A DNA stretch of 64,000 nt. Source: a virus. Shown in pieces: positions 13,154 to 39,253 of the stretch (positions within the stretch are counted from its first letter, which is position 1; the number at the start of each line of letters is the position of its first letter). Both the position numbers and the translations under genes were made by a program. The notes below the pieces were generated by a model, which saw nothing but the letters and a program-made list of their open reading frames with translations, was not told the DNA's origin and did not search any database. The DNA is taken from positions 12,252-76,251 of the IMG/VR virus record IMGVR_UViG_3300046660_000513; one strand, 5' to 3'.

Positions 13154-13300
13154 CCTCAGTTCGTACAACGGCCCGCTCCGGCGGGGACTGCTGACACCTC
13201 GCCCGGGGGCGCCCAAGTATTACCCGGCATGAGATGAATGAAGGCGGTCAGGACACCCCCTGAGGTGGGGGAGACGGGGGTTCGACTCCCCCACTGGGGA
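13154..13300 (+). ncRNA. tRNA-like RNA with ~75-nt structured insertion in the D-loop
   Basis: Acceptor CCTCAGT/ACTGGGG, T-arm GGGGG-TTCGACT-CCCCC, anticodon-like stem CCCCC/GGGGG; TATACT -10 at 13140. Confidence 0.65.
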
Positions 13301-24294: not shown

Positions 24295-24798
24295 ATGCCC
24301 AAGATCGTTGTAAGCGCCGAAGTCGAGAGCCGGATCACCCGGCACGCCGACCCCGACGACATCTGGGATGCAGGCGACACGGCAGGCGAGGTCAGCAACG
24401 TAGAGGCTTTCATCGATCGCCACGACGGCCGTTACTACGGTGAGTCCGTCGCCCGTGAGCTGGACGTGAAGATCGGCGACACCGTGTACGCGGTCGTCGC
24501 GGACTACGAGAGCGGCAGCACCTTCGGCCGCAGCGGCGGGCATGCGACCGTCCTTGATGTCTTCACCACCCTGCTGGAAGCAGAGGGTCTCCTCGAAGCC
24601 GCTCAGGCGCCTCCGGCGAGTGACGACTACAGCGACCGGTACTCGTTCACGCACAACGGCGTGGATTACCACCGGTCTTGGGTCGGTCACTTCGAGAGTC
24701 TCAACAGCCTGGACATCTGGGACATACAGGTCAAGCAGAACCCCCACGACCCGATCAAGAAGGGTCCTGGCCGCTACAGCCTCAAGCGGGGGCATTGA
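24295..24798 (+). CDS. hypothetical phage protein
   Basis: AAGGAG RBS, motif at 24251. Confidence 0.75.
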   Translation: MPKIVVSAEVESRITRHADPDDIWDAGDTAGEVSNVEAFIDRHDGRYYGESVARELDVKIGDTVYAVVADYESGSTFGRSGGHATVLDVFTTLLEAEGLLEAAQAPPASDDYSDRYSFTHNGVDYHRSWVGHFESLNSLDIWDIQVKQNPHDPIKKGPGRYSLKRGH

Positions 24799-24860
24799 AT
24801 CGCCGCATAGATCCCGGGTGTTGCTCACCCGGGATCTATGCTAGGGTAGATACATCAACA

Positions 24861-25008
24861 AGGGCGGAATGGCGAGCGTAGGCCGGTTCGAGTCCGGCCG
24901 TCCCGCAGGTCGCGGGTGTGAGGTTCAATTCCTCTTAACCACGGTGGCAAAAAGTGAGGGGCGCGCCCCCGATGACCGCGCAGAGAGGTTCGAGTCCTCT
25001 CCCGCCCG
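24861..25008 (+). ncRNA. structured RNA with three tRNA T-arm hairpins
   Basis: GGCCGG-TTCGAGT-CCGGCC, GAGG-TTCAATT-CCTC, GAGAGG-TTCGAGT-CCTCTC; ends pair GGGCGG/CCGCCC; promoter motif at 24840. Confidence 0.65.
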
Positions 25009-25046
25009 CGCAAGACTCTCCCCAACTGACCACGGAGGTCACATCC

Positions 25047-25643
25047 ATGAGCACTCCCATGATCACCCTCACCAAGGACAGCGGCCCCGCCGACCTCGAC
25101 GGCGTCACCCACATGGCCATCGGCGTCTCCTGGGACACCACCGCCGGAAGCAGCGGCGGCCCCCTGGGCGCTCTTCGTCGCAAGGTCGGCACTGACCTCG
25201 ACCTGATTGCCGTCGCCATGCAGGGCCCGGACCCGGTGCGTCTCGCAGGCCTCGACTCCCTGGACCCTCTGGGCAACAGCTCCCTGGTGCACAGCGGCGA
25301 CAACCAGACGGGCAAGGGCGAGGGCGACGACGAGATCGTCACGGTCGATTTCGCCAAGGTCCCCGCGAACGTCACCGCGATCGTGTTCATCGCCGCTGCC
25401 TACAAGAAGGGCAGTTCCTTCCAGAAGGCCCGCAACATCAGCTTCAAGGTGTACGACGCCACAGGGGGCAGCAGCACGCAGGTCGCCGACATCTGGCCGT
25501 CCCTTCTCAGTTCGGACAACGGGTGCGCGGTCGCCAAGGCCTTCCGCGTCGGCTCCGGCTGGAAGCTCCAGGTGGTCAACGAGACCGGGAAGATCAAGCA
25601 GGGTGACGAGTTCGCTCTGATGCGGTTCGCCATCAGCAAGTGA
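25047..25643 (+). CDS. TerD-family protein
   Basis: G.SWD...DLDL...HSGDN.TG.GEGDDE.V.VD..KVP motif; GGAGG RBS. Confidence 0.9.
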   Translation: MSTPMITLTKDSGPADLDGVTHMAIGVSWDTTAGSSGGPLGALRRKVGTDLDLIAVAMQGPDPVRLAGLDSLDPLGNSSLVHSGDNQTGKGEGDDEIVTVDFAKVPANVTAIVFIAAAYKKGSSFQKARNISFKVYDATGGSSTQVADIWPSLLSSDNGCAVAKAFRVGSGWKLQVVNETGKIKQGDEFALMRFAISK

Positions 25644-25893
25644 CCGTTTACGACTACGAGCCGGGCGCGGGCCCGGTTGTACCGGTTTGCCCTGACGAGA
25701 ACTGCACGAACACGGAAGACCTCTGGGTTCAGGAGTGCGCCCCCGGCCGTACGTGGGCGTTCTCCAGCAGTGTCTGCGGTCACTGGGGCTTCATCCACAA
25801 AAAGTCCGACGACGCGTGATTCCATAACCCCCGGGGCTTCCGAGCCTCGGGGGTTCGTGCTAGGGTAGATACATCGACTAACAAGGAGACATC

Positions 25894-27217: not shown

Positions 27218-27241
27218 CCCTGGATGGCTTGGGAGGGTGTA

Positions 27242-27610
27242 ATGGATTTTACGGCGGATCAAATTGCGCACGTAGTACACGAGGCGAACCGGGTGTTACA
27301 GCGGATCACGGGGGATGCGGTGCTGTCGCGGTCCTGGTGGGAGGCCCCGCAGGTTCAGCGGGAGGGTCTTGTACACGGGGTGCAGAAGGCCCTTGAAGGG
27401 GCGACTCCTGAGGAGCTGCATGAGGAGTGGGTGCGGTATCGGGCGGCTCGGGGGTGGAAGTACGGTCGTTTGAAGGATGAGCATGCCCGGACTCATCCGT
27501 GCATGGTTCCTTTTGATCAGCTTCCTCCGGAACAGCAGATGAAAGACCGGTTGTTCCACGCGATTGTGCATACGTTGGCTGGTCATCTGGTTTCGGTTGA
27601 AAAAGCCTAG
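27242..27610 (+). CDS. RyR-domain phage protein
   Basis: HEEW......GWKYG..KD....THPCMVPF.QLP..Q..KD.LF. Confidence 0.8.
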   Translation: MDFTADQIAHVVHEANRVLQRITGDAVLSRSWWEAPQVQREGLVHGVQKALEGATPEELHEEWVRYRAARGWKYGRLKDEHARTHPCMVPFDQLPPEQQMKDRLFHAIVHTLAGHLVSVEKA

Positions 27611-27682: not shown

Positions 27683-28192
27683 GTGTCCTCACCTCTGCTG
27701 CTTCTCGATGTCGATGGTGTTTTGTCCCCCACCTTCGCGACGCACAAGCCCCAGGGCTACAACGCGTTCCAGGTCATGCGTGCGGAGCTGGGGGTTTTCC
27801 GGCCGCAGCTCCGACGGATATGGCTGAACAAGAACCACGGGACGTGGCTCAAGGCGCTCGACGTCGACATGGTCTGGGCCACAGCGTGGGAGGCTGCCGC
27901 GAACTGGGAGATCGGACCCCGTATCGGCCTGGGCCCCATGGATCACATCACCTTCAGCAACAGGACATTTCAGCGCAATCTGGATGGGTCGCACTGGAAG
28001 CTGGATGACTTGATGCTGAACGCGGACGGGCGCCCTTTCGTATGGGTAGACGATGGCATCTCAGGCGCCGACACGGTGCGCGTGGCCCTGGAGTACCCGG
28101 CGCCTGCGCTTCTGTACCGTGTCGACCCGCGATGGGGGCTCACCTTGGACGATATGACGAGTATCTGGCAGTGGATCGATGTCGTGTCGTGA
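27683..28192 (+). CDS. HAD-family phosphatase (Swiss-Army-knife RNA-repair type)
   Basis: LLDVDGVL, WATAWE..AN, K, FVWVDD. Confidence 0.8.
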   Translation: MSSPLLLLDVDGVLSPTFATHKPQGYNAFQVMRAELGVFRPQLRRIWLNKNHGTWLKALDVDMVWATAWEAAANWEIGPRIGLGPMDHITFSNRTFQRNLDGSHWKLDDLMLNADGRPFVWVDDGISGADTVRVALEYPAPALLYRVDPRWGLTLDDMTSIWQWIDVVS

Positions 28193-32643: not shown

Positions 32644-32766
32644 CGGCAGTACGCTGACACGACGAAGCCCGCTCCTCGTTCCAGGGGGAGCGGGCTTCGT
32701 CGGTTCGGAACGGGTTCGGAACTGGTTCGGAACTGGGGCACCGTTCAGGTTCGGGCGTCCCGCTGT

Positions 32767-33984
32767 TCAGGTTCCCGTTCCGGTGCTCGGTTCCAGTTCC
32801 AGATCGAAGAGGTCTGACGCGTTCGGAACGCGGGCCTTGTTCCGGTTCCACTCGGCCTTGGCCTCCTTGAGCCGGTGGTGCGCGGTGGTCCGGGGGATCT
32901 CCGGGTGGTGGGTCTTGATCACCTTGAGGTCCACGCCGTCGATTCCGAACTGTTCCAGAAGTTCCATCACCTGCCTGACCTGCGCTTTCTTCTTGGTCGC
33001 CCGATCCGTGATGTTCGCGGTTCCAGTTCGCGGTTCCGGTTCAGGTTGTTCCGGTTCAGGTTCCGGTTCCAGTTCAGACGGCAGTTCAGGTTCCGGTTCA
33101 GGTTCGACCCGTTCCGGTTCAGGTTCGAAGTTCCAGTTCCGATTCAACAGTTCCAGTTCCCGTTCCAGTTCCATCGGGATCCCTACGGGTTCCTCCAGGT
33201 ACGGTTCCGGTTCAAGTTCAAGTTCCGGTTCGGGATCCGGCACTATGTCCGCCCCCGCCACCTGTTCCAGTTCCAACGCTTCCTGAACGGGGCCAGGCGC
33301 CGCCATCAGTTCCGGAACACCTGCCGGTGCCGTCTCTCCCATCCGCAGCCGCACCCGCTGGACCATCGTTGTCTTCCGGCGCCATCCTCGCCCGTGCTTG
33401 TCCTTCAGTTCCGCCCTGGCCATGAGCCGCTGGCTTTCCAGCCGCAGCCCTGTCCGGTAGGAGGTGACCTCCCACAGGACCATCCGCCTCCACAGGCGGG
33501 CCGTGGAGAACGGGTCCAGGATCCACCGGGACTTTCTCACTCGTTCCATGCGGCGCCCGGTAACGGCTCCGATGAGTGCCCGGTATACGTGTGCGGCAAT
33601 TTCTGAACAGACCACCCACAGCAGTGGGAGGGATCCGTGTCCAATCTGCGGTGCGAGACCGTCCCGGGCGGCGGAAATGTTCAGGTATACGGTCACCGCT
33701 GTGAGGGCCCACGGAACAGCCCGGACCCATCCGAGCGGCATATCGGCTCGAATCAGCAGGAGGTGGGCGAGGGAGAATACGGGGATGGCTATGTCAACGG
33801 CTACGGGGAGAATCCAGAAGGGATGAAATCCCCATTCCTGTGCTTGTTGTCCGACCGTATCGAAGGATGCGAGGAGGCCGAGTGTGCCGACGCCGAAAGC
33901 GCCAATGATCACCGTTACCAGTAGCTTGCGTTCGAAGGGCAACAAGTCGGGGATCTTGTTGTCGGGGGGCGGATCTGACGTCAT
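32767..33984 (-). CDS. DUF2637 (Spd-like) membrane protein with EP-repeat linker and C-terminal HTH-like region
   Basis: Four TM segments (SF.....A...P.AVD), P..TARLWRRM.LWE, PEPE repeats. Confidence 0.75.
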   Translation of the reverse strand: MTSDPPPDNKIPDLLPFERKLLVTVIIGAFGVGTLGLLASFDTVGQQAQEWGFHPFWILPVAVDIAIPVFSLAHLLLIRADMPLGWVRAVPWALTAVTVYLNISAARDGLAPQIGHGSLPLLWVVCSEIAAHVYRALIGAVTGRRMERVRKSRWILDPFSTARLWRRMVLWEVTSYRTGLRLESQRLMARAELKDKHGRGWRRKTTMVQRVRLRMGETAPAGVPELMAAPGPVQEALELEQVAGADIVPDPEPELELEPEPYLEEPVGIPMELERELELLNRNWNFEPEPERVEPEPEPELPSELEPEPEPEQPEPEPRTGTANITDRATKKKAQVRQVMELLEQFGIDGVDLKVIKTHHPEIPRTTAHHRLKEAKAEWNRNKARVPNASDLFDLELEPSTGTGT

Positions 33985-34778: not shown

Positions 34779-35746
34779 GCCGCGTCCGCCTCATCGTCCA
34801 GGGCGAACCACGTCTGCACGACTTCCATCGCAAGTGACTGGTAGTCCCCGGCGAGCGCCCGGATCGACGGCAGCAGCTTGGGGTCCACATCCTTGGAGTT
34901 CCTCAGCTCCTGCGGCACCTTGCCCAGCTCACGGCACTTCACGGCCGCAGCCTCTACATGGCGGATGGCCTGATCGAACACTGGAGCGGTGCCCTGGAGA
35001 TCCCGTTCCAACTGCTCCTTGATGTTCTTCTGCACCTTGGTAGCCGACGTGTTCGTGGAGAACAGGACGACACCCAGCAGCCGCAGAAGCGGGTTCAAAT
35101 CCAGTGCGGTGACGAACCGTCGGGCCACGACCCGGAGCCCCTTACGGGACGAAGGATCCGACTTGGAGGGGATGAGAACCATGTCCCCGGACGTGAGCGC
35201 CTGTAGCTGGAGAACGTCCGAGCCGGGTGCCACGTCGAGGATGATGCAGTCGAACTCCTCGCGCAGCGGGTCGATCGCAGCCGCGTACATGCCCATCCAC
35301 GCGGTGCGGTCCTCGGACTCGCCCTGGGCTCCGGCGATACGCCGCTGTACGTACAGCTCTTCAACCACGTTCTCCAGTTCGGTGCCACCCGGGACGACGT
35401 ACAGGTTCGGGCGTGCGGTGCCGGTGGGGACCAGGGGCTTGCCCTCCAGGATGGCGGCAGCTTGAGCGGCGCCGTTGTCGTCGAGGGCTGATTTGGTGAT
35501 GCCGAGGTCTTCGCAGTTGTTGCCCTGTTCGTCCATCTCGATGAGCAGGGTCTTTTTGCCGATGGCGGCGAGGGCTACAGCGAGAGCGGCGGCTGTGGAT
35601 GATTTGCCGACGCCTCCCTTGCCGTTGACGATGACGATGATCTTGCGGAGCAGGTCGCCGTTTTCGATGAGCTGGAGTCGGCGGCGGAGCGCCTTCTTCA
35701 CCGTGTCGAGCTGGACCAGCGTGATGCTGGCTTGGATGGTTGGCAT
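34775..35746 (-). CDS. parA: ParA-family partition ATPase
   Basis: KGGVGKSS deviant Walker A, D.QGN, IILDVAP. Confidence 0.92.
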   Translation of the reverse strand: MPTIQASITLVQLDTVKKALRRRLQLIENGDLLRKIIVIVNGKGGVGKSSTAAALAVALAAIGKKTLLIEMDEQGNNCEDLGITKSALDDNGAAQAAAILEGKPLVPTGTARPNLYVVPGGTELENVVEELYVQRRIAGAQGESEDRTAWMGMYAAAIDPLREEFDCIILDVAPGSDVLQLQALTSGDMVLIPSKSDPSSRKGLRVVARRFVTALDLNPLLRLLGVVLFSTNTSATKVQKNIKEQLERDLQGTAPVFDQAIRHVEAAAVKCRELGKVPQELRNSKDVDPKLLPSIRALAGDYQSLAMEVVQTWFALDDEADAA

Positions 35747-39177: not shown

Positions 39178-39178
39178 G

Positions 39179-39253
39179 TGCCGCCGGTGGGATTCGAACC
39201 CACACTGACCGGGACTTGAATCCGGTGCCTTCTGCCAATTGGGCTACGGCGGC
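39179..39253 (-). tRNA. tRNA-Leu(CAA), short variable arm
   Basis: GCCGCCG/CGGCGGC acceptor, loop TT-CAA-GT, GTGGG-TTCGAAT-CCCAC T-arm, discriminator A. Confidence 0.88.

Follow-up and report, generated by a model that had tools for sequence, protein, structure and literature searches.

A conserved tRNA-like RNA gene with three T-arms in soil actinophages

An RNA gene with three T-arms is conserved among soil actinophages

We analyzed a 64,000-nt stretch of the virus record IMGVR_UViG_3300046660_000513 (the window; all coordinates refer to it unless another locus is named, and the virus record is 59% complete) and describe an RNA of about 146 nt encoded on its plus strand at positions 24862-25007. 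Read directly from the sequence, the element consists of three canonical T-arm hairpins enclosed by a 6-bp terminal stem. Judged by its homologues, this stretch is very probably a genuine RNA gene. The RNA is a conserved gene of soil actinophages that is absent from Rfam, and it is built as the top half of a tRNA with two further tRNA corner modules in place of the anticodon part; because of this replacement, it is unable to decode. Our best reading of its role is that of a non-decoding, trans-acting tRNA mimic or decoy that would be excised by tRNA-maturation enzymes and would work on host tRNA-recognizing machinery, a chain that, taken as a whole, may hold or fail with about the same likelihood.

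We found about 25 homologues in IMG/VR contigs, soil and rhizosphere contigs, four cultured phages and two Streptomyces genomes. IMG/VR and the metagenomes were scanned by exact pattern, which placed the element on 17 IMG/VR contigs and on further soil and rhizosphere metagenome contigs. BLAST against 50,697 phage records located it in four Streptomyces phages of about 186 kb (Quantum, Kradal, EhyElimayoE and Satis), in all of which it lies in an unannotated gap just past a ten-tRNA array. In host chromosomes the element is rare: an exact-pattern scan of 185,579 species genomes gave a single match, to a Streptomyces, and a scan of 151 sampled Streptomyces genomes with a covariance model (R1, built from the 15-sequence alignment A1) gave two, one of them in a phage-like context. 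With this model the 24 members score 61-159 bits and ordinary tRNAs at most 23 bits. All 16 records examined hold exactly one full copy each (8 of these records have a completeness of at least 90%), and the mean column identity of the RNA is about 67% across carriers. The 13 sequencing runs listed for positions 24300-25700 are all rhizosphere DNA.

Known families do not account for the element. ARAGORN makes no call at the RNA, its sole call in the window being a tRNA-Leu at 39178-39253, and it places no tRNA over any homologue scanned. Rfam 15 at gathering threshold, applied to the whole window, reports nothing at 24862-25007, and at permissive E-values no family matched this locus or the five homologous loci searched; the only match from the tRNA clan (CL00001) at E ≤ 10 is to tRNA-Sec, at 17.8 bits and through a non-conserved pairing. 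We found no description of the RNA family in the full-text literature, where the individual candidates of Fremin et al. (2023; PMC10690425), who list 8,495 IMG/VR candidate RNAs, were not compared.

Three further observations concern relatives of the element. The other Streptomyces match of the covariance-model scan is chromosomal (L037:9933-10073; genome G054, contig 1, 393932-394072), lacks the 5' strand of the terminal stem and the loop that follows it, and adjoins a truncated Oxidored_FMN gene; perhaps it is what remains of a prophage, or the scar of an old integration. A 42-nt acceptor/T-arm minihelix, GGGCGG-A-ACGGTTCACG-GGAGGG TTCGATT CCCTCC-CCGCCC, lies at L014:5741-5782 (the same site as L021:8770-8811), scores 33.8 bits against the family model and shares its contig with the full member L014/L021. 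In Kradal an annotated 38-amino-acid "hypothetical protein" (gene 206; L039:497-613) crosses the 3' part of the RNA gene, as it does in EhyElimayoE; in view of the co-variation of the RNA, this coding sequence is probably spurious.

The RNA combines an acceptor/T-arm frame with two additional T-arms

The terminal stem P1 is formed by GGGCGG at 24862-24867 and CCGCCC at 25002-25007. An earlier note on this DNA had recognized this stem and its position next to a T-arm, as in a tRNA; both hold, the 5' strand starting at 24862 rather than at 24861. The adjoining T-arm, T3 (24983-25001; GAGAGG-TTCGAGT-CCTCTC in DNA letters, with the loop UUCGAGU), abuts P1 as the T-arm abuts the acceptor stem of a tRNA, and the two 6-bp helices give a coaxial stack of 12 bp. 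The 5' strand of P1 is followed by J1 (24868-24875; A-AUGGCGA), a loop that takes the place of the D-arm and in which A24868 and the GG at 24871-24872 are invariant in the alignments. The 3' strand of P1 is followed by a discriminator-like G and then by C (25008-25009). Of 23 sequences, 20 have A and 3 have G directly after P1, and 22 have C at the position that follows; no member encodes CCA.

Inside this frame, at the position of an anticodon stem, lies the 4-bp helix P2, which was identified by RNAalifold and pairs GCGT (24876-24879, followed by a single A) with GCGC (24978-24981, followed by A24982). P2 opens into a junction that bears five elements. T1 (24881-24899; GGCCGG-UUCGAGU-CCGGCC) is a canonical T-arm. 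It is followed by H2 (24902-24916; CCCGC-AGGUC-GCGGG), a D-arm-like hairpin that always has GG in its loop and is missing in the homologue L024. T2 (24920-24934; GAGG-UUCAAUU-CCUC) is the second T-arm, so that the three T-arm consensus hairpins noted earlier can all be read in place. A mini hairpin of 3 bp with a YGG loop (24939-24947; CCA-CGG-UGG) and an A-rich linker come next, and the variable arm H4 (24954-24977) closes the series.

H4 ranges across members from 12 nt, a 4-bp hairpin with a tetraloop, to an arm of about 42 nt, and its sequence is variable; two base pairs at its foot are kept across members, without co-variation. In the window its tip is GGGG-CGCGC-CCCC, and the hairpin that the earlier note had seen as GGGG-CGCG-CCCC is present there, at 24958-24969. 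Below the tip lies an internal loop, UGA/GAUGA, that resembles a kink-turn (K-turn), and H4 may be read as a K-turn both in the window and in L015. The consensus structure has neither a D-stem nor an anticodon arm, in agreement with the absence of an anticodon arm reported before. A GGTC/GACC pairing proposed at the same time finds no support: it would join the H2 loop to the variable arm, and its positions do not co-vary.

The window as a whole is also enriched in T-arm sequence. The word GGTTCRANTCC occurs six times in it, compared with 0.36 expected from shuffles, and half of these copies are clustered in 113 nt at the RNA. An isolated exact copy, GGTTCAAATCC, is found at 35092-35102 on the plus strand outside any called tRNA and may belong to the GGTTC-rich repeats nearby (32690-33319).

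Compensatory changes support every helix

We evaluated the consensus structure on 23 distinct sequences. Overall, standard pairs are formed in 98.9% of pair cells, and two-sided changes are seen at 20 of the 29 pairs. None of 500 shuffles reached these values, and sliding the 3' partners by 1-3 columns left 46-61% of cells paired and 3-7 pairs with two-sided changes. Such changes affect 5/6 pairs of P1, 2/4 of P2, 3/5 of T1, 4/4 of H2, 3/4 of T2 and 3/6 of T3, and all three pairs of the mini hairpin. Pairing is complete in P2, where the changes include ACGT/GCGT in L018 and AGGT/GCCT in L019, and in T3; it reaches 99.3% of cells in P1. The P1-T3 stack is thus contiguous and 99-100% paired, with 8 of its 12 pairs co-varying. 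Every helix of the RNA is supported by this comparison of sequences.

Each T-loop appears to have its own GG partner

In tRNA the elbow is closed by contacts between the T-loop and a GG element, such as the pair G19-C56. GG is invariant in J1, and wherever a member has H2, the loop of this hairpin contains GG; the mini-hairpin loop is YGG in most members and TGA in L008. Members without the mini hairpin (the Quantum type and L010) have lost the T-loop consensus of T2 too. In L024, a 99-nt deletion variant, T1 is fused to T2, and two T-loops and two GG elements are kept. Between the last loop G of the mini hairpin (column 92) and the C56-like base of T2 (column 70), the combination is C-G in 16 sequences, U-A in one and broken in none. 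The U-A combination, the sole departure from C-G in 17 sequences, belongs to L008, which has changed C to U in the T2 loop and G to A in the mini-hairpin loop.

These patterns are suggestive of, without proving, three T-loop/GG contacts of the G19-C56 type and hence three corners like a tRNA elbow; we infer that the GG of J1 is the analogue of G18/G19 for the T3 loop. Because each T-loop seems to own a GG partner, the RNA resembles three elbows rather than an elbow receptor. Besides a tRNA mimic, the earlier note had considered a tRNA-binding RNA, with reference to paired T-loops that recognize tRNA elbows. In that alternative, two T-loops of the RNA would interdigitate as a flat platform and stack on the elbow of a host or phage tRNA. 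Several T-loops are indeed gathered in one small RNA, and interdigitated T-loops are a known receptor of tRNA elbows (PMC4919913). However, the T-loops here sit in full tRNA-type T-arms, and in natural variants their number goes with that of the GG partners. In one case a T-loop and its GG element have changed together. The RNA moreover lacks both a specifier and an element that would read an anticodon, and it occupies tRNA-gene slots and not leaders. We consider an elbow-binding RNA very unlikely and retain the reading as a tRNA mimic.

The RNA occupies tRNA-gene positions in otherwise unrelated phages

In at least seven loci the RNA lies within or beside a tRNA array, on the strand of the tRNAs, with spacers down to 2 and 10 nt. 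It follows a tRNA-Pro by 2 nt in L017 and a tRNA-Leu by 10 nt in L003, stands between tRNA-Pro and tRNA-Leu in L010, and adjoins tRNAs in L006, L019 and L032. At L009, L012, L014 and L018 it is convergent with or antisense to its neighbours. The earlier proposal of a structured tRNA-mimic RNA gains from these slots in phage arrays as well as from the acceptor/T-arm frame and the GG-containing loop that replaces the D-arm. By these comparisons the RNA behaves as a mobile, independent, single-copy, tRNA-like gene.

We then looked for a protein partner. No conserved neighbour protein was found within 4 kb of the RNA, and in 11 carrier genomes (24-160 kb, assembled from stretches) no protein family is common to all. 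The best protein cluster, which is tail-fibre-like, covers 6 of the 11 carriers; the other widest clusters are an NlpC/P60 lysin and DUF6011. TROVE, RtcB, SmpB and RNA ligase (PF09414) were not found in the 59%-complete virus record, nor was RNA ligase in the five other carriers searched. Since the carriers share no protein and the conservation of the RNA nevertheless stays high, a host-encoded partner is likely.

A second conserved, unannotated element of about 125 nt adjoins the three-T-arm RNA in large actinophage tRNA arrays (L001:3155-3285, L003:5003-5130, L006:1460-1590 and L010:7385-7497). Its invariant core is GAGGCCAA, a spacer of 6 or 7 nt, and TGATCCGCGTGGCGGC; three of the loci have it downstream of the RNA, and one has it upstream. 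Rfam gives no match to it at E ≤ 1, and it does not occur in this window.

A promoter motif precedes the RNA, and terD follows it only in this window

The phage promoter-type motif CTAGGGTAGAT is found on the plus strand at 24841-24851, 10 nt upstream of the first base of the RNA. With up to two mismatches it has 47 matches in the window, compared with 7.4 expected, and their strand tracks gene direction; the promoter motif named in the earlier note is thus present. The motif also precedes the homologue in L015. Between the stop codon of the upstream open reading frame (24798) and the promoter motif, the plus strand carries a perfect 14-bp inverted repeat with a 5-nt loop (24807-24839) and no T-run after it, possibly a terminator without a U-tract or an operator. 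An inverted, minus-strand copy of the motif with two mismatches (24834-24844) overlaps this repeat.

Downstream, terD (25047-25643, plus strand) encodes a protein of 198 amino acids that matches Pfam TerD with an E-value of 2.3e-17. Neither a promoter motif nor a plus-strand terminator-like site was found between the RNA and terD, the next copy of the motif in the window being at 25860, beyond terD. In the window terD is probably co-transcribed with the RNA, outside the conserved unit. The link with TerD that had been suggested before is not borne out: terD lies downstream of the RNA in this window only, and in L015, the closest relative and one with the same promoter motif, the RNA is followed, 590 nt downstream, by a gene for a tyrosine integrase. 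A BLAST search with TerD found none beside the homologues, a weak result as the query was mis-framed; that terD is not a conserved neighbour follows mainly from the different neighbours of the other loci (tRNA arrays, integrase, antisense genes).

The integrase of L015 raised the possibility that the element is a phage attachment site (attP). We rejected this candidate because the whole RNA, and not just a tRNA 3' end, is conserved and co-varying, and because most carriers have no nearby integrase.

Two explanations would tie the element to its surroundings. It could be the decaying remnant of a three-tRNA array or a cis-regulatory leader specific to terD: three T-arms could in principle be left from three tRNAs, and the RNA does lie in the 5' region of terD here. 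The same architecture, however, is found in all homologues, with compensatory changes and in otherwise unrelated phages. At the homologous loci scanned, ARAGORN calls no intact tRNAs in place of the RNA, let alone the three that a deletion remnant would have come from, and 24 homologues fit one model; the downstream genes moreover differ at every locus. We find this explanation scarcely credible.

Alternatively, the RNA could punctuate transcripts, recruiting RNase P and RNase Z to set or stabilize the ends of neighbouring RNAs (here the terD mRNA), with the excised RNA having no function in trans. Such elements have analogues in the t-elements of plant mitochondria and in the acceptor/T-arm minihelices between phage early genes. 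The place of the RNA after a promoter motif and ahead of terD, from which no plus-strand terminator-like site separates it, fits this view, as does the 42-nt minihelix of the same frame on the contig of L014/L021. But a minihelix would then suffice, and yet about 100 nt of internal structure (T1, H2, T2 and the mini hairpin) is conserved and co-varying. The RNA is also present in single copy per genome and is not repeated between genes, and because it is antisense to or convergent with its neighbours at several loci, there is no mRNA to punctuate at these. A role confined to punctuation is in our view unlikely.

Other features of the window were noted. A second tRNA-like RNA, at 13154-13300 on the plus strand, has an acceptor stem and a T-arm (GGGGG-TTCGACT-CCCCC), is not called by ARAGORN and is preceded by an inverted copy of the promoter motif. 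Its equal length, which had been remarked on, is coincidental: the three-T-arm family model matches only its T-arm (14 bits, E = 0.46), and the two RNAs are unrelated. The plus strand also encodes a 128-amino-acid protein with an RyR domain (27224-27610; Pfam PF02026, E = 3.4e-11) right after the Prim-Pol gene, and, 2.7 kb downstream of the RNA, a 169-amino-acid protein (27683-28192) with a weak match to Pfam HAD_SAK_2, a HAD domain found in the "Swiss Army Knife" proteins of RNA repair (E = 7.6e-07; the score of 30 bits compares with a cut-off of 27.5). Relatives of the latter occur in only three carriers, including two other carrier genomes (G152 and G165).

A tRNA decoy is the favored reading of its function

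We favor a trans-acting tRNA mimic or decoy because a non-decoding, tRNA-like gene is conserved across phages that have no proteins in common. Source transcripts would start at the element's own promoter in this window and would come from tRNA arrays elsewhere. The position in tRNA arrays, the tRNA-type frame and the missing encoded CCA suggest that the RNA is a substrate of host RNase P, of a 3' nuclease and of the CCA-adding enzyme, which would together mature it. RNase P of the host would cut it from phage transcripts at G24862, the 3' tRNA-processing nuclease would trim it, and the CCA-adding enzyme would then add CCA. In the folded RNA each T-loop would dock its own GG element (T3 with J1, T1 with H2 and T2 with the mini hairpin), so as to display three elbow-like corners. 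As a tRNA look-alike acting in trans, the RNA would finally occupy a conserved host factor that reads the top half, the T-arm or the elbow of tRNAs; this factor might be a defence or toxin enzyme that targets tRNA, a regulator that senses tRNA, or an enzyme that modifies the T-arm. The carriers are otherwise unrelated phages of 43-186 kb with no common protein, and for this reason the RNA would have to rely on host machinery that is conserved, which makes it a candidate RNA-based factor for host takeover or counter-defence.

The weak link of this chain is the decoy step, and several observations count against the proposal. The folding energy of the single sequence is ordinary (z = -0.27); as this z-score is uninformative, the comparative evidence must carry the case for the RNA. 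The tertiary pairing of T-loops with GG elements is suggested by the co-occurrence of motifs and by one double change. A role in cis or in processing could explain the strong conservation of the T2 and T3 stem sequences just as well. Among the carriers tested, no tRNA-related protein accompanies the RNA consistently; the one copy with an RNA ligase nearby, 4 kb away, is that of Streptomyces sp. NPDC102441.

In its widest form the proposal would define a new class of tRNA mimics, with three elbows on an acceptor frame, that spreads horizontally among unrelated actinophages by neutralizing or hijacking a host factor that recognizes the T-arm or elbow; this is possible, if doubtful. Were it true, the RNA could serve as a decoy for an immune nuclease or a toxin that targets tRNA, or as a blocker of uncharged-tRNA sensing. 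Stable non-tRNA RNAs have long been known from phage tRNA clusters, rnaC and rnaD of phage T4 being instances, and this family offers a clean, strongly co-varying actinophage example. The four cultured phages that carry the RNA can be grown on Streptomyces lividans or S. griseofuscus, natural variants of the RNA that lose or fuse modules resemble ready-made mutants of a modular design, and this small RNA would be attractive for structure determination.

Comparison with known tRNA-like RNAs

With tRNA (RF00005) the element shares the 12-bp acceptor/T-arm stack, a UUCRANU T-loop, GG on the 5' side of the body, a purine discriminator, and a place in phage arrays with tRNA-like spacing and no encoded CCA. 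Unlike tRNA, it has no D-stem, anticodon arm or anticodon, it carries two extra T-arms with their own GG hairpins, its stack is split 6+6 instead of 7+5, and it escapes ARAGORN.

The frame is closest to the tRNA-like domain of transfer-messenger RNA (tmRNA, SsrA), which likewise combines acceptor stem and T-arm with a stemless, GG-bearing analogue of the D-loop and has a helix at the anticodon-stem position that leads into a large insert. In contrast to tmRNA, the RNA is only about 146 nt long and lacks G3:U70, an mRNA-like reading frame and a ring of pseudoknots. This likeness raises the alternative of a chargeable RNA, to which CCA is added and which is aminoacylated by a synthetase that ignores the anticodon, for use on the ribosome in the manner of tmRNA or by an aminoacyl-tRNA-dependent transferase. 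The CCA-adding enzyme, EF-Tu and several synthetases need no more of a substrate than a 12-bp acceptor/T-arm stack. The stack is intact here, the discriminator is mostly A (20/23, as given above), and the topology of stemless D-loop and helix in place of the anticodon stem fits the tmRNA domain. On the other hand, acceptor pairs 1-5 vary freely without G3:U70 (pair 3 of P1 is G-C, A-U, U-A or C-G, never G-U), so no acceptor identity set is conserved; there is neither a reading frame nor a resume codon, SmpB was not found in this record, and the Rfam tmRNA models match no more than a T-arm, at about 15 bits. We regard a chargeable RNA as quite unlikely.

YrlA (RF02553) is another non-decoding RNA with tRNA-like hairpins of T and D type; some YrlA RNAs are substrates both of RNase P and of the enzyme that adds CCA, and YrlA is found in phages too (Chen et al., 2014; PMC4201824). 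The RNA could accordingly be a Y RNA of this type that partners a Ro60/Rsr protein. Its internal order of T-arm, stem-loop and second hairpin recalls the T, AS and D order of YrlA (PMC4201824), and a TROVE (Ro60-like) protein of 564-638 amino acids is encoded by 4 of the 11 carriers tested, which are 4 of the 5 large carrier phages (G159:47311-47511, G160:84451-84687, G161:60341-60502 and PQ412544.1:85927-86148). These genes, however, lie 10-41 kb from the RNA, and TROVE was not found in this record or in five other carriers, of which four have a completeness of at least 92%; a complete carrier genome of 160 kb lacks it as well. The exact Ro-binding motif GNCGAAN0-1G occurs in 0 of 24 members; the relaxed form GNCGAR occurs in 10 of 24, at no shared position and never on a conserved helix. 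The Rfam YrlA model has no match at E ≤ 10. Unlike YrlA, the RNA has no Ro-binding helix, is not linked to rsr and ends in acceptor position rather than in a Ro-binding stem. A YrlA-type function appears highly improbable, and a mimic that acts on host tRNA-recognizing factors remains our preferred reading.

The genomic niche recalls species 1 and 2 of phage T4 (rnaC and rnaD), small stable non-tRNA RNAs that are encoded in the tRNA cluster and matured together with the tRNAs. Host phylum and architecture differ, and to our knowledge there is no sequence or structural similarity between these RNAs and the three-T-arm RNA. The T4 species 1 and 2 RNAs are named in PMC9697503.

Finally, the combination of more than one T-loop in a compact RNA domain, and the relation to the tRNA elbow, are shared with the double T-loop receptors. 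In stem I of the T-box, the S-domain of RNase P and the L1 stalk of 23S RNA, 5-nt T-loop motifs in bulges or loops pair mutually to receive an elbow. The three-T-arm RNA has, instead, full T-arm hairpins, each of which seemingly forms an elbow of its own with a GG loop.

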